DNA of 10,554 bases from an uncultured bacterium. Lineage in GTDB: Bacteria; Lernaellota; Lernaellaia; Lernaellales; Lernaellaceae. Position numbers and translations under genes: made by a program. The notes below the pieces were generated by a model that had not been told where the DNA came from, did not search any database, and saw nothing but the letters and a program-made list of their open reading frames with translations. Shown here in pieces: positions 227 through 9,100 of this stretch. The stretch spans positions 1 to 10,554 of the forward strand of contig CAZHPN010000198.1 of the NCBI GenBank assembly GCA_964534375.1, written 5' to 3'. Within the stretch, counting starts at the first letter, position 1; every line of letters starts with the position of its first letter.

Positions 227-298
227 ATAGGACCGATAGGTCGAATAGGACGTATAGGTCCTATATGTCGTATACGTCCTATCGATTCTGTCGATTTT
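227..298. repeat. Degenerate, self-complementary 9-bp tandem array (about 8 units)
   Basis: Units: ATAGGACCG ATAGGTCGA ATAGGACGT ATAGGTCCT ATATGTCGT ATACGTCCT ATCGATTCT GTCGATTTT. It contains a perfect 12-bp inverted repeat, ATAGGACGTATA (245-256) / TATACGTCCTAT (271-282). Confidence 0.9.
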
Positions 299-393
299 CT
301 CGGCGATTCCGCGGGAACGACGAATCAACGGGCGAGGCCCCGCGATAGTCGGGCCGCGCGGCGCCGCTGCAGTGAATCTTTTGTCGTCTTGCG

Positions 394-409
394 GCGGCCG
401 CAGGCCGCG
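394..409 (-). repeat. Partial copy of the recurrent REP-like hairpin motif
   Basis: GCGGCCGCAGGCCGCG matches 15/16 to GCGGCCGAAGGCCGCG in the copy at 3636-3663. Confidence 0.55.
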
Positions 410-433
410 TTCGCGCACCTGGGGATTTAACGG

Positions 434-456
434 AAAAAGCCGGGGCTCGCCCGGCT
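434..456 (-). terminator. Putative intrinsic terminator for leftward transcription
   Basis: Stem AGCCGGG (438-444) / CCCGGCT (450-456) with a 5-nt loop. AAAAA at 434-438 reads as a U-tract on the minus strand. Confidence 0.55.
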
Positions 457-486
457 CTCTGTCTGCGCGTTGCTGATTATGGGTGT

Positions 487-515
487 ATTTTGGTCGCCTT
501 TTGCCAAAATGTCAA
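487..515 (-). promoter_or_regulatory. Putative sigma70 promoter, leftward (TTGACA-N17-CAAAAT), with an overlapping inverted repeat
   Basis: The minus strand has a perfect -35 TTGACA (515-510), exactly 17 nt of spacer and a -10 CAAAAT (492-487, 4/6 consensus), in an AT-rich patch. ATTTTGG (487-493) / CCAAAAT (504-510) form an operator-like inverted repeat. Confidence 0.55.
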
Positions 516-570
516 CACTTATTTTTCGACGTCGCGCAAGTGATTGATAATGAACGAATTTATTTTTCGT

Positions 571-591
571 CGTAACGCGACAGAGTCGCAA
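571..591 (+). repeat. Copy of the recurrent REP-like hairpin motif
   Basis: CGTAACGCGACAGAGTCGCAA matches 18/21 to CTTAGCGCGACAGAGCCGCAA, the reverse complement of the copy at 3874-3899. Stem GCGAC-AGA-GTCGC. Confidence 0.7.
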
Positions 592-644
592 TAAGGCAGG
601 GCGGCGCCCCCCACGGCGCCCCGCCCGCCGGGCCGACCTCGGGC

Positions 645-672
645 CTGATAGCTGACCACTGACCACCGACCA
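645..672. repeat. 7-bp tandem array (CTGACCA)x4, degenerate
   Basis: CTGATAG CTGACCA CTGACCA CCGACCA. Confidence 0.8.
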
Positions 673-778
673 CTTTCGGCTGGGCCCGCTTCTTCCCGCC
701 GCAGTTGACGCGCCAGCAGCGGCGGCGTACGGTGCCCCAAACGGGAAAATGAACGACTCGGACGTAGGGGGGATGACT

Positions 779-2035
779 ATGGGCCGGATTCTTCGTTCTG
801 CTTCGTTTGTGTGCCTGGCCGCGGCGCTCGCCGCCCTGTTCGTCGGCTGCGCCGCCGGCAAGGGAACCACCAACAACAATTACTACATCACCGACGACGA
901 CGTTTCGCCGGGCGACGACGATGACGACGACAACGACGCGTCGCCGGGCGACGACGACGACGATGCCTCGCCGGGCGACGACGACGACGACGACGATTCG
1001 GCGCCCGACGACGACGATGACGACAACGACAATGACAGCGCCGACGACGATGACGACAACGACGACAATGACGACAACGACGACAATGACGACAATGACG
1101 ACAACGACGACAATGACGACAACGACGACGACAACGACGACGACGACGACAACGACGACGACAGCGCCGGCTCGTGGACGCCGATGGCGAGCGGCTCGAC
1201 CTGGGATCTGCACGGCGTCTGGGGCAGTTCCGCGACGGACGTGTTCGCCGTGGGCGCCGATCTGCTGCACTACGACGGCGCCTCGTGGTCGACGCTGGCG
1301 AGCGAGCCGCCATGGGATCTCTTCGGCGTCTGGGGAACCTCCGGCTCCGACGTGTTCGCCGTCGGCTACCAGGGCCTGATCATTCACTACGACGGCGCCT
1401 CGTGGACGCCGCTGGCCAGCGGGACGACGGCGCTGCTGTACAACGTCTGGGGCACGTCGCCGGCGAACGCGATCGCCGTGGGCACGAGCTACGACGGCAG
1501 CGGCAACCCGACCGGCGGCGTGATCATGCAGTACAACGGCACGGCCTGGTCGGAAATGTCGACCGGGGCGACCGTGGACTTCGTCGGCGTGTGGGGCAGT
1601 TCCGCCGCCGACGTTTTCGCGGTCGGCGGCTCGATCATGCGCTACAACGGATCAACGTGGTCGACGATGACGAGCGAACCCACCGCCGGACTCTACAGCG
1701 TGTGGGGCAGCTCGCCGTCGAACGTGTTCGCCGTGGGCGACAGCGGCATCATCCTGAATTATCAGAGCGGCTCTTCGTGGACGCCGATGACCAGCGGCAC
1801 GTTGGCGTTGCTGTACGGAGTCTGGGGAACCGGCCCGGCGGACGTGTTCGCCGTGGGCACGATCGCCGACGCGGGCGGCAATCCGATCGGCGACGTGATC
1901 CTCTTCTACAACGGCGCGACGTGGGTCCCGATGAACAGCGGCTCGACGGCGGGGCTGTACGCGGTCTGGGGCAGCGCGCCGCTGGATGTCTTCGCGGTCG
2001 GCGAGGCGGGAACGATTCTGCACTACGGCAACTGA
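779..2035 (+). CDS. Lipoprotein with Asp-rich linker and 7-repeat beta-propeller (WD40/YVTN/BNR-like repeat protein), paralog A, 418 aa
   Basis: ATG 779 follows GGGGGG (767-772). This start puts the lipobox Cys (FVG-C) at residue 24, the same position as in paralog B. A 90-aa Asp tract precedes seven W-x-x-M-x-S...L-x-x-VWGSS-x-x-DVFAVG...I-x-x-Y-x-G repeats (1172-2032). Alternative starts: 749 or 773. Confidence 0.9.
   Translation: MGRILRSASFVCLAAALAALFVGCAAGKGTTNNNYYITDDDVSPGDDDDDDNDASPGDDDDDASPGDDDDDDDSAPDDDDDDNDNDSADDDDDNDDNDDNDDNDDNDDNDDNDDNDDDNDDDDDNDDDSAGSWTPMASGSTWDLHGVWGSSATDVFAVGADLLHYDGASWSTLASEPPWDLFGVWGTSGSDVFAVGYQGLIIHYDGASWTPLASGTTALLYNVWGTSPANAIAVGTSYDGSGNPTGGVIMQYNGTAWSEMSTGATVDFVGVWGSSAADVFAVGGSIMRYNGSTWSTMTSEPTAGLYSVWGSSPSNVFAVGDSGIILNYQSGSSWTPMTSGTLALLYGVWGTGPADVFAVGTIADAGGNPIGDVILFYNGATWVPMNSGSTAGLYAVWGSAPLDVFAVGEAGTILHYGN
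893..1162 (+). repeat. Poly-Asp coding tract (GAC/AAC microsatellite), 60 Asp in 90 codons
   Basis: (D)n-[A/V]SPG units, then eight consecutive GACGACAA(C/T) 9-mers at 1052-1123 encoding (DDN)8. Confidence 0.95.
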
Positions 2036-2055
2036 CGCACGCGGGAGGTGTAAAC

Positions 2056-3186
2056 ATGCGCCGGAATCTTGGATTGGCACTCGCGCTGATCGCGGCCGCG
2101 GCGATCGCGGCCGGGCTCGCCGGCTGCGCCGCCGGCAAGGGCACGACCAACAACAATTACTACATCACCGACGACGACGCCTCGCCGGGCGACGACGACA
2201 ACGATGACGACGCCTCGCCGGCCGACGACGACAATGACGATGACGCCACGCCGGGCGACGACGACGACAACGATAATGACAACGACAATGACAACGACGA
2301 TATTGACGACGACAGCGCCGATTCGTGGTCGGCGATGACCAGCGGCACGCCGTGGGATTTGCACGGCGTCTGGGGCAGCTCGGCGACGGACGTGTTCGCC
2401 GTGGGCTCCAACGTGCTGCACTACGACGGCGCCTCGTGGGCGACGACGGTCAGCCAACCGCCGGCGGAGTTGTTCGGCCTCTGGGGCAGTTCCGGCTCGG
2501 ATGTCTTCGCCGTCGGCTTCAACGGCTCGATCCTGCATTACGACGGCGCGTCGTGGACGCCGATGACCAGCGGCACGACCGCGCTGCTGTACGCCGTCTG
2601 GGGCGCGTCGGGCGCGAACGTGTTCGCCGCGGGCACGCAATACGACGCCGGGGGAAATCCGCTCGCCGGCGTGATCGTGAATTACGACGGCGCGGTCTGG
2701 TCGCCGATGAAGACGGAGCCGACCGCGGAATTTGTCGGCGTTTGGGGCGACTCCGCCGCCGACGTATTCGCGGTCGGCGGCTCGATCATGCGCTACAACG
2801 GATCGACGTGGTCGACGATGACGAGCGAACCCACCGCCGGACTCTACAGCGTGTGGGGCAGTTCGGCCGCGGACGTGTTCGCGGTGGGCGCCGGCGGCTA
2901 TATTCTGAATTACCGCGGCGGCTCCTCCTGGACGGCGATGACCAGCGGCACGTCGGCGTTGTTGTATGGCGTCTGGGGCGGCGGCCCGACCGATGTGTTC
3001 GCCGTCGGCACGACCTTCGGCGCGGGCGGAAGTCCGGCCGGCGACGTCATCCTGTTCTATAACGGCTCCGCTTGGTCGCCGATGACGAGCGGCTCGACGG
3101 CCGGGCTCTACGGCCTCTGGGGCAGTTCGGCCACGGATGTGTTCGCGGTCGGCGAGGCGGGAACGATTCTGCATTACGGGCCGTGA
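2056..3186 (+). CDS. Lipoprotein with Asp-rich linker and 7-repeat beta-propeller, paralog B, 376 aa
   Basis: Strong RBS GGAGGT (2044-2049) before ATG 2056, 20 nt after the stop of paralog A. Canonical lipobox LAG-C24, a 48-aa Asp tract and seven repeats collinear with paralog A (2323-3183). The track's 1174 start is a shadow extension. Confidence 0.93.
   Translation: MRRNLGLALALIAAAAIAAGLAGCAAGKGTTNNNYYITDDDASPGDDDNDDDASPADDDNDDDATPGDDDDNDNDNDNDNDDIDDDSADSWSAMTSGTPWDLHGVWGSSATDVFAVGSNVLHYDGASWATTVSQPPAELFGLWGSSGSDVFAVGFNGSILHYDGASWTPMTSGTTALLYAVWGASGANVFAAGTQYDAGGNPLAGVIVNYDGAVWSPMKTEPTAEFVGVWGDSAADVFAVGGSIMRYNGSTWSTMTSEPTAGLYSVWGSSAADVFAVGAGGYILNYRGGSSWTAMTSGTSALLYGVWGGGPTDVFAVGTTFGAGGSPAGDVILFYNGSAWSPMTSGSTAGLYGLWGSSATDVFAVGEAGTILHYGP
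2170..2313 (+). repeat. Poly-Asp coding tract, 28 Asp in 48 codons
   Basis: About three 33-bp units encoding DDDA[S/T]P[G/A]DDDN, followed by (DN)n. Confidence 0.93.
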
Positions 3187-3202
3187 AGTTGATGAGCGTT
3201 TG

Positions 3203-3243
3203 CACCACCGAGCCTTAGCGCAGCCCTTCGGGCCGCAACCAAA
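3203..3243 (+). repeat. Full copy of the REP-like hairpin motif with CACCAC-GAGC flank
   Basis: CACCACCGAGCCTTAGCGCAGCCCTTCGGGCCGCAACCAAA; inverted relative to the copies at 3636-3663 and 3874-3910. Confidence 0.88.
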
Positions 3244-3252
3244 CGTTTTTTT

Positions 3253-3364
3253 AGCCGCAGATGTCGCAGCTGACCGCAGACTTCGCACGGGCCACGAAGA
3301 TTCCGATCCGGGCGAGAGCCATTGGCGGCCCGTGCGTCTGCGTAAATCTGCGCAATCTGCGGCT
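3253..3364. repeat. 112-nt hairpin cassette 1 with (CGCAGAT)-type ~9-bp-period arms
   Basis: Arms 3253-3281 / 3336-3364 are 23/29 complementary, with the outer 10 bp perfect (AGCCGCAGAT/ATCTGCGGCT). Inner stem GCACGGGCC (3285-3293) / GGCCCGTGC (3327-3335). Confidence 0.88.
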
Positions 3365-3508
3365 GCCCGGAGAATCTTTGCGCGAAAACAAGAAATCGCC
3401 GGTTAGTAGTACAGAGAACGCCGAGAGATCATAAGAAAATTTCCTGCTCTGTACTACTATCCGCGAATTTCTTCGCTCGGCGCGAAGAATTTGGAAAGTT
3501 GAATACAA

Positions 3509-3621
3509 CCGCAGATTACGCCGATGAACGCAGATTAGCGTGGCGGGCCGGGGCGAAATTTCGGCCGCCGAAATTTCGATTTCCCGGCCCGCAAATCTGC
3601 GCCAATCTGCGCAATCTGCGG
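3509..3621. repeat. 113-nt hairpin cassette 2 with (CGCAGAT)-type arms and a palindromic core
   Basis: Arms 3509-3536 / 3594-3621 are 23/28 complementary. Inner stems: GCGGGCCGGG (3543-3552) / CCCGGCCCGC (3583-3592) and CGAAATTTCGGC-C-GCCGAAATTTCG (3554-3578). Confidence 0.9.
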
Positions 3622-3635
3622 CTAAAGAAAAATCA

Positions 3636-3663
3636 TTTGGTTGCGGCCGAAGGCCGCGCTAAG
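3636..3663 (-). repeat. Full copy of the REP-like hairpin motif
   Basis: TTTGGTTGCGGCCGAAGGCCGCGCTAAG, reverse complement CTTAGCGCGGCCTTCGGCCGCAACCAAA; near-identical to 3214-3243. Confidence 0.88.
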
Positions 3664-3729
3664 TCCTCTGTACTGCTAACGGTTCGTTTCTTGTTCTTGC
3701 GCTACGAATTTCATTGCGCCGTTGTCGCG

Positions 3730-3774
3730 CCTGGGAATAATGGGACTCATGTGACCAATGGGACTCATGGGATT
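3730..3774. repeat. 9-bp tandem array (5 units; 18-bp higher-order period)
   Basis: CCTGGGAAT AATGGGACT CATGTGACC AATGGGACT CATGGGATT. Confidence 0.85.
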
Positions 3775-3836
3775 ATCAGCGCCGTGCCCGTTCGCCAACC
3801 GGGCGCAATGAAACCACGCAGGCCCCGCGCCGGTTC

Positions 3837-3874
3837 ATTCCGCAATCCGCAATCCGCAATCCGCAATCCGAAAT
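3837..3874. repeat. 7-bp tandem array (AATCCGC)x5
   Basis: ATTCCGC AATCCGC AATCCGC AATCCGC AATCCGA AAT, directly abutting the hairpin motif at 3874. Confidence 0.93.
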
Positions 3875-3910
3875 TTGGTTGCGGCTCTGTCGCGCTAAGG
3901 CTCTGTGGTG
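3874..3910 (-). repeat. Full copy of the REP-like hairpin motif with CTCTGTGGTG flank
   Basis: The reverse complement CACCACAGAGCCTTAGCGCGACAGAGCCGCAACCAAA shares CACCAC-GAGCCTTAGCGC and GCCGCAACCAAA with 3203-3243. Confidence 0.88.
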
Positions 3911-4014
3911 AGCCTTTCATTTCCTGTCGAACAATCATCCTTCCTTCGCGCCGCGGCTGGAAACGCCGCCCACGATCTGGTAGCCTTTCCTTCCATTTTT
4001 CGACGAGGCGCGGC

Positions 4015-6909
4015 GTGCGGCGGATCGTATTGGCCTTGGCGGTTTGGCTGGCGCTGGCGGGCGTCGCGCGGGCCGATCCGTTCAAGCCGAACGAAGATTT
4101 CAAGACGCTGAACACGGAGCACTTCCACATCACCTATCCGGCGGACCGGCGCTTCGAGGCGCAGAAGGCCGCGGTGCTGGCCGAAGAGGTGTTCGCGCTG
4201 CTGACCAAGCGCTACAAATGGACGCCGCACACGCCGATCGAGATGCTCCTCACCGACCGCACGGACTACGCGAACGCCAACACGAGCATCGCGCCGATGC
4301 AATTGATCAATGTCTACCTGGCGCAGCCCCACACGTCGGACCGGCTCGATTACTACGACGACTGGATCCGCATGCTCATCGTCCACGAGATGACGCACGC
4401 CGTGAACCTCGACGCGGTCAGCGGCTTGCCGCAACTCTGGCGGTGGGTGTTCGGGCGCGTGCTGCCGGTCGGCGACATCCAACCCCTCGGCCTCATCGAA
4501 GGCACGGCGACGCTGCAGGAATCGATGCTGACGACCAAAGGCCGCGTGCGCGACGTCAATTCGCTGATGCTGCTGCGCATGGCGGCGTTGGAAGACCGCT
4601 GGCCGGCGATCGACCGCACCACCGTGCCGCCGGCGATTTATCCGACCTGGTACGCGCCGTTCATTTGGGGCGCGATGTTCAACAAGTACCTGTACGACCA
4701 CTTCGGCATGGACGCGCTGGCCGACGCCAACCTGCTCCACGCCGGCGACGTCTGGCCGTTCCTGTTCAACCACAACGCCAACAAGGTGTACGGCTCGCAC
4801 CTGACCGATCTGTACGAGGCCTGGTCGGTCGATATGAAACGCTGGGCTGCGGCCGAAGGCGAGCGGCTCGCGGCCGCCGGCCTGACGCGCGCCGTCGCCG
4901 TCACCGACAACGGCTGGGACCACATCAACCCGCGCTGGGCGGATGAAAACACCCTGGTGTATTCCGAAAGCAACCGCGATCGCGGCGCGACGCTGCGCCG
5001 CCTCGACCTGCGCGGCAAAACGCCGAGCGACTGGCAGCTCACCGAGACCTTCGACGAAGCGCGGGGGCTCGACATCGCGCCCGACGGGGCGATCCTCTAC
5101 ACCGACACGCTGCCGAAAGACCCCTGGCGGTTTTTTTACGACCTCTACCGCTTCGAGCCCGGCGCCGTGCTGCCCCGCCGCCTGACGACCGACCTGCGCG
5201 TGACCGATCCGGCGATCATCCCCGGCACGAACCTCGCGCTGTGCATCACGCAAACCGGCGGGCGCTCGCGGCTGTCCGAAGTGAACATCCGAACCGGCGC
5301 GGTCCGCCACCTGACGAAGCTCGATCAGTACGGCGGCTACATCCAGATGAGCGGCCTCGCGGTCCATCCCAGCGGCACGTGGGCCGCGGTCAGCATCTGG
5401 CACGACGACGGCAACCGCGACCTCTTCAAGTTCGACCTGGCGACGGGGAAGTTCACGCGGCTGACCGCCGATCCCGAGCGCGACTTCGACCCGGCGTTCG
5501 ACCCGAGCGGGCGCTACCTGGTGTTTTCGTCGGCGCGCACCGGCATCTTCAACATCTATGCGCTGGACCTGGAGACGGACGAACTCTTTCGCGTCACCAA
5601 CGTGCTGGGCGGCGCGTTCATGCCGGCGGTCAGCCCGTCGGGCAGGCGGCTGGCGTTCGTCGGCTATCGTTCGACCGGCTACGACATTTACCTCATGGAT
5701 TTCCGGCGCGAAAACTGGGTGCAGGTTCCGCGCGAGACGATCGACAACCCCGGCATCGTCATCGGCCCGATCTCGCGGTCGATCGACGATCGCGCGCGCC
5801 TGATCGACCCGCCGACCGACGATTACGATTCGGCGCAAAACGCCTGGCCGCATTACTGGTTCCCGGATTGGTCGCCCACGTTCATCATCGGCGGCAGCGA
5901 CATCCTGCTCGGCGCGGAAACCGCCGGCTTCGACGTCGCCCAGCGCCACGCGTGGGATACGCATTTCTTATGGGCCTTCAAACGGCGGTTCCCTTACGCC
6001 GACGCCGAATACACGTACGAGCGCTATAACCCGTCGGTCAACATCGCCGTCGCCCACGTCGCGGAAAATCACGGGCCGGTGCTGACCAAGCCGAACGGGC
6101 AACCGTTCGATTACTGGGAACGGCGGCTCGGCGCCGATCTGACCGCCGACTACGCGATCCTCTGGCGCCACGAAGTGTACGCCGGCTACACCGGGGAGTG
6201 GCGGTCGGATCTCGATCGCCTGCCGGCGGGGACGCGTCCGCCGCCGCTGGTCGGTTATTGGTCGGGCGCGCGGATCGGCTGGCGCTACGCCGCGAACGAC
6301 GTGCTCGATCGCCGCGTGGTCTTTCCGGCGTCGCTCGGCGCGACCTTCTACGATCCCGCGTTCGGCAGCGTCGTGCGGCAGCAGCTCGTCGGCGGGACCG
6401 CCGAGGCGTACGTGCCCCTGCCCGTCTACCGCGGCAGCTTCATCGCCAGCGCCGCCGGCGGCGTGAGTTTCGGCCGGCAGTTGCCGCAGCGGACGTTCTT
6501 TCTGGGCGGCACGACGCAGGCGGATCCCGTCCTGCTGAATTTCGCCAACGACCAATTCGCGATGCCGGGCTACAACTCGGGCATCGCCTACGGCGACGCC
6601 GCAGCGACGGGCACGGTCGCGTTCAATTTCCCGATCGTGGAAATCGAACGCGGCCTCTGGACGTGGCCGATCTACTTCCGCGACTTTTACGGCCAGGCGT
6701 TCGCCGACGGCGGTTTCGCGATCGACCGCGGCCAGAAGCTGACGCGCGACGACCTCTTTCCCGACGCCGGTTTGACGATTACCATGGCCTTCGTGCTGGG
6801 CTATAGTCTCGAATCCACGATCTCCGGAACCTTCGCGTACGGCTTGCGCGATCTGGACAATATGGGAGGCCCCCATTGGCTCGTAAATCTAGGCGGACTG
6901 CTCCCGTAG
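4015..6909 (+). CDS. Secreted/outer-membrane protein: peptidase MA-like (HExxH) domain + TolB/PD40 beta-propeller + BamA/TamA(Omp85)-like C-terminal barrel, 964 aa
   Basis: GTG 4015 follows GAGG (4005-4008). Sec signal MRRIVLALAVWLALAGVARA. HEMTH at 4384-4398 with a downstream LIEG Glu as likely third Zn ligand. PD40-like repeats (DPAFDPSGRYLVFSSARTGIFNIY, PAVSPSGRRLAFVGY). Aromatic beta-strand-rich C-terminus (FPIVEIERG...FYGQAFADGG). Confidence 0.85.
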   Translation: MRRIVLALAVWLALAGVARADPFKPNEDFKTLNTEHFHITYPADRRFEAQKAAVLAEEVFALLTKRYKWTPHTPIEMLLTDRTDYANANTSIAPMQLINVYLAQPHTSDRLDYYDDWIRMLIVHEMTHAVNLDAVSGLPQLWRWVFGRVLPVGDIQPLGLIEGTATLQESMLTTKGRVRDVNSLMLLRMAALEDRWPAIDRTTVPPAIYPTWYAPFIWGAMFNKYLYDHFGMDALADANLLHAGDVWPFLFNHNANKVYGSHLTDLYEAWSVDMKRWAAAEGERLAAAGLTRAVAVTDNGWDHINPRWADENTLVYSESNRDRGATLRRLDLRGKTPSDWQLTETFDEARGLDIAPDGAILYTDTLPKDPWRFFYDLYRFEPGAVLPRRLTTDLRVTDPAIIPGTNLALCITQTGGRSRLSEVNIRTGAVRHLTKLDQYGGYIQMSGLAVHPSGTWAAVSIWHDDGNRDLFKFDLATGKFTRLTADPERDFDPAFDPSGRYLVFSSARTGIFNIYALDLETDELFRVTNVLGGAFMPAVSPSGRRLAFVGYRSTGYDIYLMDFRRENWVQVPRETIDNPGIVIGPISRSIDDRARLIDPPTDDYDSAQNAWPHYWFPDWSPTFIIGGSDILLGAETAGFDVAQRHAWDTHFLWAFKRRFPYADAEYTYERYNPSVNIAVAHVAENHGPVLTKPNGQPFDYWERRLGADLTADYAILWRHEVYAGYTGEWRSDLDRLPAGTRPPPLVGYWSGARIGWRYAANDVLDRRVVFPASLGATFYDPAFGSVVRQQLVGGTAEAYVPLPVYRGSFIASAAGGVSFGRQLPQRTFFLGGTTQADPVLLNFANDQFAMPGYNSGIAYGDAAATGTVAFNFPIVEIERGLWTWPIYFRDFYGQAFADGGFAIDRGQKLTRDDLFPDAGLTITMAFVLGYSLESTISGTFAYGLRDLDNMGGPHWLVNLGGLLP

Positions 6910-8840
6910 GCCCCGGGCCCGCGCGGCCCGCAACGCCGGCTGCGCCGGCCGCGCCGGCCGCGCCGGCCGCCGGCGGCGGGCAAAAGAAAACGCCCTACGT
7001 GCGGCCCTCGCGACCGCCGCGCAATCGGCGCCTGTGGTTCTGGCTGCAAATCGCCGGCGTCGCCGCGGCGTGCGTGGCGCTGTTCGTCGTGGTCGTGCTG
7101 CCGCTCGTCACCCCGATGATCTTCGATGGGGCCGGCGACCCGCACCTGCCGCCGCTGCTCGACGCCGCCGCCGCCGCCGCGCTGATCCAGTCGGCGCGCG
7201 CCCAGTTGCGCGGCGAATCGCCGCCCGCCGCGGCGGCCGGCGGCTCCGCCGCCGTCATCGGCGCGGTCGTGGCGATCTACAACGAAGACGGCCCGCGCGC
7301 CGCCGCCGGCTGTTTCGGGACCGACGCCCGCCAGGCCGTCGCCTGCGCCGCCGGCAAGCTGCGTCCGGGCGCGGCCAATTTCGGCGAGGCGCCGACCGAC
7401 CTGGTCTCGCTTCACCTGCTGCGCGAATTGCGTCCGGCGACGCCGCTGTGGTTGCGCGACCGCGGGTGGGGCCACAGCCGCGGGCTGTACTCGACGTTGC
7501 TCGCCGGCGACGAGGGCGCGCGGCTGCTGACCGACGTGCAAATGCACGTGGGCAGCTACAACGTCTCGCGCGCGCTGGAGGCGCTGGAGCACGAGCGCGG
7601 CGTGAAGATGTCCGGCGAGGCCCCAAAGGAGGGGCGGTTCCTGATCCCGACCGAGTCGTGGACGGAATACGAGGGCAAGCCCGTGGCGCTCTACCGCGCC
7701 TCGACGATCCTGCCGCCGCCCGACGGCAAGCAGATTGTCGAATATTGCAAACTCGCCGGCGACTACCTGGCGAAGATTCAGCAGGACGACAACAAGTGGC
7801 TCTACGAGGGCGACGTCGGCCGCGATCGCTACGGCAAGACCTACAACACGCTGCGCCACGCCGGCACGGTGTACGCGCTTTATCAATTGTACGAGGTCAC
7901 CGGCGTCGCCCGTTACAAGGATACGGCCGACCGCGGCTGGGCCTGGCTGCTCGAACAGATCGAACGCGAGAACGACGAGGCCGGCGCGCCCTGCGCGTTC
8001 GTCGTCGAGCGGCACACCGCCGAATCCGGCGGCAAGCGCCGCACGACCTATACGGTCAAGCTCGGCGGCACGGGCCTGACGCTGCTGGCGCTCGCGGAGC
8101 GGCTGAAGGTCGCGCCGAACGACGCGGACCTCGCGCTCGGCAAGGCGCTGGCCAACCATATCCTGCGCAGCCAGAATCCGGACGGCTCGTTCCAGGACTA
8201 CTGGGCGTACAAGACCGCCCACGCCAAGGAGCGGCGGTCGGAATATTACCCCGGCGAGGCGATGCTCGGCCTGATCCGTTTCTACGGCATCGATCCCGAC
8301 CCGCGGTATCTCGCGGCGATGGAGCGCGGCGCGCACTACGCGATCCACGACCACTACACGATTCTGGGCGAGCAGTTTTACGTTCCCCTTGACGCCTGGT
8401 TTTCCGTGGCGCTGGGCGAGCTGCACAAGGTGCAGCCGAAAAAGGAATACGCCGATTATTGCCTGATGCTCACGGACATGGAGCTCAACGACCAGATGGC
8501 CGCCAAGTGGCAGATCTTTTATCCGGATTACGACGGCGGCTATTGGCCCTACCCGCCCGGCGGGACGCCCGCGGGCTCGCGCGCCGAGGGCATCACGGCG
8601 TGCTGCGAGGCCGCGCAGCGGGCCGGCTACGACGTCCGCGAGTTGAAAGAGCGCATCCGCAAGTCGGCGCGCTTCCAGCTCGAACGGATGGTGCGGCCCG
8701 AATTCGCGCACCTTTATCCCAATTCGCGGCGGGCGCTCGGCGCCATCCGCAGCACGCCGGTCGGGAACGTCGTGCGCATCGACGCCAACCAGCACAACAT
8801 TTCGAGTCTGCTCGTCGCGGCGCGGATTCTGGGCGATTGA
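6876..8840 (+). CDS. Membrane-anchored protein with a C-terminal alpha/alpha-toroid-like enzyme domain (six-hairpin glycosidase / prenyltransferase-repeat-like), function unknown, 654 aa
   Basis: TTG 6876 lies 6 nt after GGAGG (6865-6869) and overlaps the upstream gene by 34 nt. Basic, Pro/Ala-rich N-tail, one TM helix (LWFWLQIAGVAAACVALFVVVVLPLV), helical repeats, a QW-like QNPDGSF motif (8172-8192), and the motifs YNTLRHAG, KLGGTGL, YYPGEA, RIDANQH. High GC3 codon usage. Confidence 0.8.
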   Translation: MARKSRRTAPVGPGPARPATPAAPAAPAAPAAGGGQKKTPYVRPSRPPRNRRLWFWLQIAGVAAACVALFVVVVLPLVTPMIFDGAGDPHLPPLLDAAAAAALIQSARAQLRGESPPAAAAGGSAAVIGAVVAIYNEDGPRAAAGCFGTDARQAVACAAGKLRPGAANFGEAPTDLVSLHLLRELRPATPLWLRDRGWGHSRGLYSTLLAGDEGARLLTDVQMHVGSYNVSRALEALEHERGVKMSGEAPKEGRFLIPTESWTEYEGKPVALYRASTILPPPDGKQIVEYCKLAGDYLAKIQQDDNKWLYEGDVGRDRYGKTYNTLRHAGTVYALYQLYEVTGVARYKDTADRGWAWLLEQIERENDEAGAPCAFVVERHTAESGGKRRTTYTVKLGGTGLTLLALAERLKVAPNDADLALGKALANHILRSQNPDGSFQDYWAYKTAHAKERRSEYYPGEAMLGLIRFYGIDPDPRYLAAMERGAHYAIHDHYTILGEQFYVPLDAWFSVALGELHKVQPKKEYADYCLMLTDMELNDQMAAKWQIFYPDYDGGYWPYPPGGTPAGSRAEGITACCEAAQRAGYDVRELKERIRKSARFQLERMVRPEFAHLYPNSRRALGAIRSTPVGNVVRIDANQHNISSLLVAARILGD

Positions 8841-8843
8841 CAG

Positions 8844-8862
8844 CACAGCGCGGCGGCGCAAC
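8844..8862 (+). repeat. Degenerate (loop-deleted) copy of the REP-like hairpin motif
   Basis: CACAGCGCGGCGGCGCAAC versus CTTAGCGCGGCCTTCGGCCGCAAC; it lies 7 nt before the GTTACGA array. Confidence 0.4.
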
Positions 8863-8869
8863 GGCGCCC

Positions 8870-8924
8870 GTTACGAGTTACGCGTACGAGTTACGAATTA
8901 CGAATTACGAGTTACGAGTTACGG
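8870..8924 (+). repeat. 7-bp tandem array (RTTACGA)x8
   Basis: GTTACGA GTTACGC GTACGA GTTACGA ATTACGA ATTACGA GTTACGA GTTACGG. Confidence 0.95.
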
Positions 8925-9055
8925 ACCAGCAGAGCCTCTTGCACAAACACGCGTCGGATTTCGGCTGTTTGATTTTCTCGGCGTTCGCGGGGGCGGGCTC
9001 TCCGCGTGAACGACTTGTGACGGGGTGGGATCGCCGCCGCAATGGGTGCGGCCAC

Positions 9056-9100
9056 TCGTCACTCGTCACTCGTAACTCGTAATTCGTAACTCGTAACTCG
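9056..9100 (-). repeat. 7-bp tandem array (TCGTAAC)x6, inverted partner of 8870-8924
   Basis: TCGTCAC TCGTCAC TCGTAAC TCGTAAT TCGTAAC TCGTAAC TCG, the reverse complement of GTTACGA-type units. Confidence 0.95.

Follow-up and report, generated by a model that had tools for sequence, protein, structure and literature searches.

Prokaryotic transposases include the DDE, DEDD, HUH, serine, tyrosine and Cas1 types. HUH enzymes gave rise to IS91, IS200/IS605 and Helitrons, and elements of the IS91/ISCR and IS200/IS605 groups have no terminal inverted repeats, leave no target-site duplication, contain a subterminal hairpin, insert in one orientation and produce short derivatives. Insertion sequences (IS) of the IS110/IS1111 group likewise show neither terminal inverted repeats nor target duplication and use hairpin-type repeats as targets. 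Homing to small repeats is also typical of IS1397 and ISKpn1, which insert in repetitive extragenic palindromic (REP) sequences and bacterial interspersed mosaic elements (BIME), as IS110/IS1111 do in REP or attC sequences, the enzymes being of the DDE or DEDD type. Here we analysed a stretch of 10,554 nt from an uncultured bacterium of the Lernaellota (contig CAZHPN010000198.1 of assembly GCA_964534375.1, hereafter the window), in which a short GC-rich hairpin, module H (CTTAGCGCGGC-loop-GCCGCAACCAAA), recurs in an intergenic spacer. We consider it quite probable that H is the left end, and a second module, T, the right end, of a mobile IS-like family of ~1.93 kb that carries a gene for a ~520-aa protein. 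The window is an entire contig (C198) of a genome, G000, of 6.30 Mb in 381 contigs with 64% GC (further C numbers denote contigs of this genome).

This appears to be an undescribed and very widespread family of insertion sequences and miniature inverted-repeat transposable element (MITE)-like derivatives with a non-canonical, possibly Rep_trans-like enzyme. Full-text literature searches, covering neither subscription journals nor ISfinder, brought up no paper describing such an element or a Rep_trans-type transposase. In Rep_trans initiators the catalytic tyrosine is located on a beta-sheet, in a YxK motif and with a D/D/E metal site, according to PMC5714925, which also describes the general traits of IS91 as an HUH transposon. 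The archaeal Rep-Arvir initiators combine a catalytic domain of the TATA-binding protein (TBP) fold with a MarR-like winged helix proposed to bind the hairpin origin, and the corresponding family DUF7845 is reported as exclusive to archaea in PMC13107129.

Hairpin motif H in the window and across the genome

The pattern CTTAGCGC..GCAACCAAA has exact matches in the window at 3214-3243 (+), 3636-3663 (-) and 3874-3899 (-), and not one of 200 dinucleotide shuffles of the window contained even a single match. A covariance model of H (R1, 33 nt, built from 53 distinct variants drawn from many genomes) recovered, with all filters off, the same three sites only (E 3.4e-10, 5.4e-6 and 1.1e-5), the next-best match having an E value of 0.27. 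The three full copies proposed in an earlier note on this DNA are thus borne out by exact pattern, shuffles and model. The three degenerate copies listed in the same note (394-409, 571-591 and 8844-8862) were rejected, as their R1 scores are no better than those of random GC hairpins: the first (394-408(-), 9.8 bits, E 0.46) amounts to a bare GCGGCC/GGCCGC stem with a score comparable to several GC hairpins inside coding regions, the second (568-597(+)) reaches 5.3 bits (E 7.8), and the third gives no match at E<=10. It follows that H has no tie to the window's ATAGGAC, CTGACCA and GTTACGA arrays. The last of these, at 8870-9100, is a gene-less heptamer-armed hairpin unconnected to H, with ~8 and ~7 GTTACGA units enclosing 130 nt and convergent genes on both sides.

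Genome-wide, H is represented in G000 by 31 exact matches, 57 nhmmer matches at E<1e-3 and 47 R1 matches at E<=1e-3, while the exact pattern is absent from 40 related genomes. Approximately one third of the G000 copies are situated close to a contig end (15-60 nt), their CAACCAAA side outward. According to the earlier note, this same end of the motif faces short-period tandem arrays. For the 44 copies located at least 100 nt from a contig end, tandem arrays of period 7-10 (Tandem Repeats Finder, TRF) within 100 nt were found downstream in 20 cases and upstream in 8, the frequency at random positions being ~3.3% per side. This part of the claim stands for the three real window copies and for the 20 versus 8 cases genome-wide, and is weakened by the fact that a single element accounts for 10-11 of the 20 downstream cases.

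A stronger association, missed in the earlier note, exists on the opposite (CTTAG) side of H, where a CRCAGAK-type unit ends 0-5 nt before the motif in 44 of 54 usable copies, compared with 3,615 of 100,000 random positions. The target units are CACAGAG/CACAGAT on the CTTAG side of H; the arrays near the CAACCAAA end, previously taken for targets or products of insertion, are instead internal parts of miniature elements (see below). Both the large number of copies elsewhere in the genome and the orientation of H relative to the target unit, which is fixed rather than random, favour mobility.

G000 is unusually rich in arrays, with 954 period-7 arrays (>=2.8 copies) in 143 unit families (AAAAAGG 86, AACAGTG 83, AATGCGG 75 and others) and, besides, 792 period-9 arrays in the TRF output. 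In addition, a dispersed repeat, CCCCTCACCCCTTCCCCCTCTCCCACGTCCTGGAGAGGGGAACCAAACC.., directly follows H at C196:10545-10607, C120:15060-15145 and C49:2400-2487, and G/C-rich inverted repeats similar to it flank a DUF559 gene at C12.

The full element: two ends and one gene

Module T is a post-stop hairpin region ending ..TAGTAGT, of which G000 has 32 real copies. It stands at the start of eight contigs, in all eight with the same preceding sequence (..TTGCACCAGAACAAGAAACAAAGGAATAGTAGT), and H followed by one identical sequence is found at 10 contig ends. These 10 ends and 8 starts point to a longer multi-copy H..T element, with at least 10 copies at contig breaks, that is missing from the assembly. 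A trace of its gene was found at C5:1780-2290, a frameshifted relic of an open reading frame (ORF) just before a T-unit-H junction. A 62-aa piece of this relic, used as query, retrieved 521-aa 'hypothetical proteins' encoded on contigs of 1.7-2.9 kb. With the best 521-aa match (P0001) as a query against metagenome contigs, 562 of 600 candidate stretches were confirmed as relatives, again mostly on 1.7-2.9 kb contigs, and 80 loci were kept (L numbers).

One metagenome contig, L161 (2295 nt, 100% to P0001), is 100% identical to the terminal 339 nt of C209 and to the initial 125 nt of C290, and so bridges two of these breaks. It displays three CACAGAG units, H, a 319-nt structured leader, the 521-aa ORF and T, which overlaps the stop codon; after the terminal TAGTAGT follow three more units, a 14-nt loop and an inverted arm. 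By this layout the full element measures ~1.93 kb and occupies the left arm of a small hairpin with CACAGAG arms. An insertion sequence is recognised by several near-identical copies that share their ends but have unrelated flanks; such copies were found both in G000 (via L161) and in a genome of the same class, G015 (five copies). Separately, C316:1-240 joins two non-adjacent pieces of the element (L161 563-745 and 1681-1735) and is probably an internally deleted copy.

Gene-less miniatures in the spacer 3187-4015

The 829-nt spacer at 3187-4015 of the window consists mostly of three gene-less H..T elements, named c, a and d (Table 1). Element a extends from TTAGCG of module H through ..GCGGATAGTAGT. 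The sequence that follows its H is common to 11 loci of G000, 10 of them full, and these 10 copies show 0-2 differences over 210 nt in unrelated flanks. A second copy of element d is present in C135, and the interior of element c has relatives in C26, C88 and C323. The 7/9-nt arrays on the CAACCAAA side lie inside the three elements as cargo. The CGCAGAT-type arms of elements a and c also flank a GxxExxY gene at C166.

Table 1. Positions of miniature elements, remnants of their host hairpin and tandem arrays in the window
Feature	Position	Strand	Remarks
H copy 1, left end of miniature element c	3214..3243	+	Exact pattern; R1 E 1.1e-5
Miniature element c, 196 nt	3215..3410	+	Ends read; module order as in element a
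Parts of element c			H, T-rich linker, CGCAGAT-type inverted arms 3254-3290 / 3337-3361, tail T ending TAGTAGT
Miniature element a, 210 nt	3453..3662	-	H 3636-3663, tail T 3453-3495
Interior of element a			CGCAGAT arms 3590-3620 / 3507-3540 around GAAATTTCGG..CCGAAATTTC palindrome
Miniature element d, 227 nt	3672..3898	-	H 3874-3899 (short stem), tail T 3672-3712
Interior of element d			AATCCGC array 3839-3874, TGGGACTCA-type 9-mers 3732-3772
Host hairpin, outer left arm CACCACCGAGCC	3203..3214	+	Abuts element c
Host hairpin, core: unit ACAGAGAAC, 27-nt loop, inverted unit CTCTGT	3411..3452	+	In-silico excision fold
Single unit ACAGAGGAC between elements d and a	3663..3671	-	T-unit-H junction, like the junction at C5:2262-2340
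Host hairpin, outer right arm CTCACCACAGAGCC (- strand)	3899..3912	-	Abuts element d
ATAGGACnn 9/18-nt array	227..282	no strand	Tandem-repeat listing; no H link by R1
CTGACCA x3.3 array	652..674	no strand	Tandem-repeat listing; no H link by R1
Inverted GTTACGA arrays 8870-8923 / 9054-9100	8870..9100	no strand	Arms 92-95% complementary; no significant H nearby

An empty site was reconstructed in silico by removing the three elements and joining 3196-3214, 3411-3452, 3663-3671 and 3899-3920. The joined remainder folds into a single hairpin (DNA dG -19.7 kcal/mol versus -9.8 +/- 2.3 for 200 shuffles). The insertion points of c, a and d lie between ..NNC and ACAGAG (C^ACAGAG) within this one CACAGAG-armed hairpin. 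H always lies toward the 5' unit and the elements are oriented with the unit, so that the elements of the inverted right arm run on the minus strand. In all 10 copies of element a, the left and right units agree with each other (CAGAG or CAGAT). A target-site duplication was rejected: the units that flank element a match at only 5-8 of 8-9 positions, and are thus neighbouring array units rather than a duplication. The H..T derivatives are MITE-like in having both ends of the full element without its gene and in being multi-copy; they depart from the classical MITE definition in that they have no terminal inverted repeats (the two ends are unlike) and no target-site duplication.

In Logan contigs of the public runs, element a has a depth 10-20x that of unique flanks, a depth that does not represent a copy number; none of these contigs spans 3187-4015, and among them there is no clean empty allele. 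A joint 3243>3375, seen in a single contig of the public runs, was discarded as too weak to use.

The heptamer-armed design (resembling intervening sequences, IVS, of 23S rRNA), with inverted arrays of 7-10-nt units, occurs in the window at 8870-9100 and in the interiors of elements a and c. Gene-bearing versions with four-helix-bundle or GxxExxY genes were found at seven loci of G000. The earlier note had connected four-helix-bundle and GxxExxY genes with similar 7/9-mer arrays. Their arms or inverted repeats are their own, and H as a part of four-helix-bundle, GxxExxY or DUF559 cassettes was ruled out, being absent from them except at C43, where a GxxExxY fragment has H as an insertion in one arm only.

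Elsewhere in the window, a GAAATTTCGGCGGGCGCCGAAATTTC palindrome at 1-52 resembles the core of the mini-hairpin of element a (3548-3580); the same segment gives a sub-threshold, 5'-truncated match to Whalefall-1 (RF01762; 22.4 bits versus a gathering score of 37). The region left of the spacer is occupied by tandem paralogous lipoprotein-like genes (749-2035 and 2056-3186), whose products contain a Cys-bearing signal peptide, a long linker rich in Asp and Asn and seven or eight repeats of ~37-48 aa (W..M..G....L.GVWG.S..DVFAVG..G.I.HY), neither of them matching a Pfam family above the cut-off.

The family in other genomes

A scan of 185,579 species genomes (one per species) with a loose exact pattern gave at least 119 loci. 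Among the matches listed, ~30 are true hairpins of the form TTAGCGCGGC-loop-GCCGCAACCAAA, most of the others being chance matches. The listed true hairpins come from Acidobacteriota, Planctomycetota, Lentisphaeria, Binatia, Kiritimatiellota, Thiotrichales and others and are preceded by CACAGAG, CACGAAG or CACAGAT units. In the metagenome loci the left end upstream of the ORF reads TTAGCGCGGC.., (C)ACAGCGCGGC.. or TTAACGCGGC..GCCGCAACCGCAG. Little or no variation is seen in its 5-bp stem (GCGGC/GCCGC) and flanks (A-GCGC and AACC), and the loop varies (AAA, ATA, AGA, TGTC and more; 59 distinct cores with 40+ different loops). The shortest members consist of ~100 nt, one ORF and ~55 nt. The right end of distant members is a GC palindrome after the stop codon, followed by e.g. 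..AAAAGCCACAGAGGAAGACTCTA, with an exact CACAGAG in L202, L211, L222 and L232; nearer members end in ..GTAGTAGT|ACAGAG. The heptamer targeted by the local subfamily thus also occurs as a motif in the right end of the family itself.

Among 41 related genomes, the protein profile matched in G000, G009 and G015 only, and R1 gave 47, 5 and 33 matches, respectively, in the same three genomes and none in the 38 others; most of these R1 matches are at loci other than those used to build the model. Hairpin and protein hence occur in the same three of the 41 genomes only. G015 (9 contigs) contains five full copies, identical and with an intact ORF, and one partial copy. All five full copies have the junctions ..GTGTGTGGCAC|AGCGCGG.. 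(flank ..GGCAC) on the left and ..TAGTAGTAC|AGGCGCCCyCGCCTGTGC on the right, which places each of them in the left arm of a GCACAGGCG/CGCCTGTGC hairpin.

At the locus of the window itself, the PD40-protein gene is conserved in 7/7 family genomes, with a differing left neighbour, so that an exact empty site is not readable at the orthologous position. In six relatives H was not found in the orthologous upstream region, the left-side synteny being broken. Invariant presence of the motif across relatives, named in the earlier note as a sign against mobility, is not what was observed: H was not found in 38 of 40 related genomes searched or in the six orthologous upstream regions, in favour of mobility.

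The protein family is large, comprising 14,208, 7,884 and 2,154 clusters at E<=1e-3, 1e-10 and 1e-30, and all 30 Atlas clusters are labelled 'hypothetical protein'. Between lineages, the end of T and the target unit appear, from the sequences compared, to co-vary. Loci of a Binatia metagenome-assembled genome (MAG; L118) and a Lentisphaeria MAG (L100/L101/L115) combine H and T with CACGAAG instead of CACAGAG units, and in these CACGAAG lineages the last bases of T change too (..GCTAGTAGCACGAAG).

Two alternative interpretations of H were considered. The earlier note had suggested kinship with REP/REPIN hairpins mobilised in trans by a REP-associated tyrosine transposase (RAYT, of the HUH Y1 type), and G000 does contain seven Y1_Tnp matches, three of them strong, alongside a short GC hairpin in dozens of copies. 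However, all seven Y1_Tnp loci are flanked by their own, different repeats, none of which resembles H, whereas H sits at a fixed distance upstream of a non-Y1 ORF in the 80 metagenome loci and in G015, accompanying that ORF family in 3/3 genomes and occurring in 0/38 genomes without it. REP hairpins carry a conserved GTAG-type tetranucleotide at their foot; none is present at the foot of H, which reads TTAGC/ACAGC...AACC. With each Y1 locus bound to other repeats, a RAYT-driven origin of H is hardly conceivable. As an aside, RAYT/IS200-like Y1 genes are located at C23:42052-43393, C324:1-1172, C380, C59 and C140, each among REP-like repeats of its own (for example GCGCCAACGGCGCGATTTATTACAGCCTGGGGCAACGCCCCAGG), forming repeat systems separate from H in the same genome.

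The second interpretation takes H for an RNA element of heptamer-armed cassette transcripts, either a UUCG hairpin with a stabilising or terminator-like role or a processing signal. On the H strand, many of the local copies show a loop of the C(UUCG)G type with a T-rich run 9-10 nt downstream, and several follow a stop codon on the same strand. Family-wide, on the other hand, it is the loop that varies and the stem and flanks that are invariant in sequence, H is placed upstream of the element's own ORF, and its copies occur in both orientations relative to neighbouring genes. Rfam has no match at H or in three full elements; its matches elsewhere are sub-threshold miRNA-like ones on long hairpins and the weak Whalefall-1 match already mentioned. 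We therefore regard an RNA function of this kind as very unlikely and retain the assignment of H as a left end of a mobile element.

The ~520-aa protein

The ORF contains no HUH Y1/Y2, DEDD or other recombinase domain detectable by Pfam or NCBIfam, the family alignment has no invariant His pair, and a sequence-profile search of the PDB returned weak winged helix-turn-helix (wHTH) rows only. AlphaFold models (pLDDT 89.2 at full length, 93.0 over residues 1-396) suggest two parts. Residues 397-521 are modelled as a winged helix of the MarR/HxlR type (Z 8-9.7), and residues 1-396 can be aligned to practically the whole of TBP (1mp9, Z 8.4, 178-184 aligned residues; 5fur_A, Z 8.1; Z 8.1-8.4 over 175-184 residues for the TBP alignments overall). 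Apart from TBP, both lobes are covered by two chains only, the Rep_trans initiators 4cij_A and 4cwc_A (Z 6.9 for each, 192 and 176 aligned residues, ranks 5-6 of 48,161 chains). The best BFVD rows are giant-virus TBPs and Inoviridae proteins, the latter at probability 0.90-0.99 and including A0A345MNV4, named as a PF02486 protein in PMC13107129.

By combining alignment and model, an invariant Tyr327 was placed on strand 322-329 in a K-M-Y-D-K context. The ~34 invariant residues on the saddle strands, with Tyr, Lys, Arg, Asp and Glu among them, include Y327, K325, K329, R335, E337, D20, E88, E112, E247 and D251. In the models, a TBP-like double saddle is followed by a MarR-like winged helix, as in the Rep_trans/Rep-Arvir initiators.

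We think it probable that the ~520-aa protein is the transposase of the family and acts in trans on the miniatures. An alternative would leave the H..T element mobile and reduce the protein to a DNA-binding regulator or accessory factor, the elements being moved by a host recombinase or by the machinery of the four-helix-bundle/GxxExxY cassettes. This would agree with the lack of a sequence link to any catalytic family, with TBP (a DNA binder) as the best fold match, with the annotation of homologues as ArsR-type regulators and with the residence of the elements inside heptamer-armed hairpins. It is at odds with the shortest members, which carry one ORF, so that no second gene travels with the element, as well as with the intact ORF in the five identical G015 copies, the invariant polar residues of the saddle strands listed above, and the five four-helix-bundle and three GxxExxY genes of G000, which are without H. 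Overall, a purely accessory role is unlikely, and we proceed with the protein as the probable transposase.

Proposed mechanism and its weak points

Whether this transposase works like a Rep_trans/Rep-Arvir nickase is, judging from the models, close to an even question, with the balance slightly toward the negative. Somewhat more tentatively still, it may be the first transposase of the Rep_trans/TBP-fold class, in which the winged helix would grip the stem and a beta-sheet tyrosine would cut and rejoin single strands. In such a scheme, the MarR-like winged helix at the C-terminus would dock on the invariant GCGGC/GCCGC stem, and the saddle Tyr327, together with the invariant acids, would nick one strand on the 5' side of the stem, a few bases away from it (C^TTAGC or C^ACAGC); since the loop of H is not conserved, the cut is probably placed outside the loop, 5' of the stem. 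A second cut would be made at the T end, and the freed strand would be joined into a target that mimics the CACAGAG motif of the element's own right end. The overall process could be a rolling-circle or single-strand 'peel and paste' transposition, a Rep_trans counterpart of IS91 and IS200/IS605. Speculatively, read-through past T might capture neighbouring heptamer-armed mini-hairpins, which would become the cargo of elements a, c and d.

The junctions would also be compatible with the same element and protein operating by conservative site-specific recombination of a double-stranded circle, as in IS110/IS1111, with a crossover in a shared ACAG core. In the ACAGCGCGG subfamily the junctions read C|ACAG-CGCGG on the left and TAGT|ACAG-AG on the right, T-H junctions (..TAGTAGTACAGCGCGG..) are found in L176, G015 L276, C25 and C49, and the absence of terminal inverted repeats and duplications and the use of hairpin-type repeat targets are as in IS110/IS1111. 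Yet the ORF has no DEDD or other recombinase signature, the fold favours the Rep_trans side, and the T-H junctions may be plain head-to-tail neighbours, like that at 3663-3671 of the window. We assign this route a low, albeit appreciable, likelihood, and the single-strand scheme with a Rep_trans-like enzyme remains the one that we tentatively prefer.

A number of observations weigh against the interpretation of the family as a mobile element with a Rep_trans-like enzyme. As to the element, this assembly lacks its full interior, some of the loci behind R1 come from G000, G009 and G015, no true empty orthologous site was found among the relatives (which are 42-51% identical, with broken synteny on the left), and distant homologues occur in 14 plasmid records, where they are annotated as ArsR regulator or hypothetical protein. 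As to the enzyme, catalysis by the protein is a prediction from the models. Apart from a weak wHTH match at 470-506, the 521-aa protein has no family in Pfam or NCBIfam, and hence matches no NCBI transposase model. No Pfam match to Rep_trans or DUF7845 (PF25227) was seen at E<=10 in 29 members, and hhalign of the family against 13 Rep_trans ORFs gave a probability of 0.2%. The Z score of 6.9 is middling, within the range that the structure tool calls common; TBP, which is not an enzyme, outscores the Rep_trans chains; Foldseek returned nothing at E<=1e-3 from the PDB for both models; and the loop, which is the nick site of pT181-type initiators, is unconserved in H.

The central proposal of the earlier note, that the hairpin is a recognition end for a trans-encoded protein and that the window holds gene-less copies, is supported in outline by the H..T elements. 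If the present reading is true, a large family of 'hypothetical' proteins and 'ArsR regulators' (7,884 clusters at E<=1e-10, spanning Acidobacteriota, Planctomycetota, Pseudomonadota, a Lernaellota-type genome and others) would be the enzyme of an unrecognised insertion-sequence family. A second, non-HUH class of rolling-circle nickases would then also have given rise to transposons, adding a further catalytic class of prokaryotic transposase. The family would home to, and by read-through capture, heptamer/nonamer-armed hairpins of unexplained origin. In practical terms, the element accounts for assembly breaks (~18 contig ends in G000), and the 33-nt model R1 flags its copies, allowing the transposon layer to be separated from the heptamer-armed landing cassettes. 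The strict choice of site and orientation (C^ACAGAG by a hairpin) may be of interest as a programmable-looking insertion system.

Comparison with known systems

The heptamer-armed cassettes stand in a double relation to the family. Their CACAGAG/CGCAGAT-type arms are landing sites, and elements a and c carry gene-less mini versions of them as cargo. Neither H nor T belongs to the cassettes; of the 8 cassette loci inspected, 7 have no H.

Like the family, the repeat-homing insertion sequences choose one arm of small hairpin repeats between genes and insert there at a constant position and in a constant orientation. The targets described here differ from theirs in being arms of 7-10-nt tandem units, and there is no DDE or DEDD enzyme. 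Similarity to the IS91/ISCR and IS200/IS605 elements, with their REP and PATE derivatives, extends further, including the lack of terminal inverted repeats and of target duplication, asymmetric ends, a subterminal hairpin, site- and orientation-specific insertion and short non-autonomous derivatives. In contrast to the HUH transposons, the ORF of the present family has no HUH/Y1/Y2 domain and no invariant His pair, and its predicted fold is different.

With respect to the Rep-Arvir/RepSNJ2 initiators (DUF7845, PF25227), the ~520-aa protein is bacterial, does not match PF25227 and belongs to an IS-like element with miniatures rather than to a replicon. It nevertheless appears to share with them, as described in PMC13107129, the architecture of a TBP fold plus a MarR-like winged helix, along with the same kind of fold matches (giant-virus TBPs and Inoviridae A0A345MNV4).

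Compared with the Rep_trans proteins (PF02486; pT181 RepC/RepD, pSTK1 Rep, 4CIJ/4CWC and the MOB_T relaxases), the protein is without sequence or profile similarity, ~150 residues longer and fused to a C-terminal winged helix; it is encoded by a chromosomal multi-copy element rather than by a plasmid, phage or integrative and conjugative element, and with an unconserved loop in H the cut would probably fall outside the loop. The likeness to Rep_trans lies in the modelled two-lobed TBP-like saddle (Z 6.9, 176-192 aligned residues), in a conserved beta-strand Tyr in a Y-x-K context accompanied by invariant acids, which may correspond to the catalytic Tyr and the D/D/E site, and in the predicted action next to a DNA hairpin.

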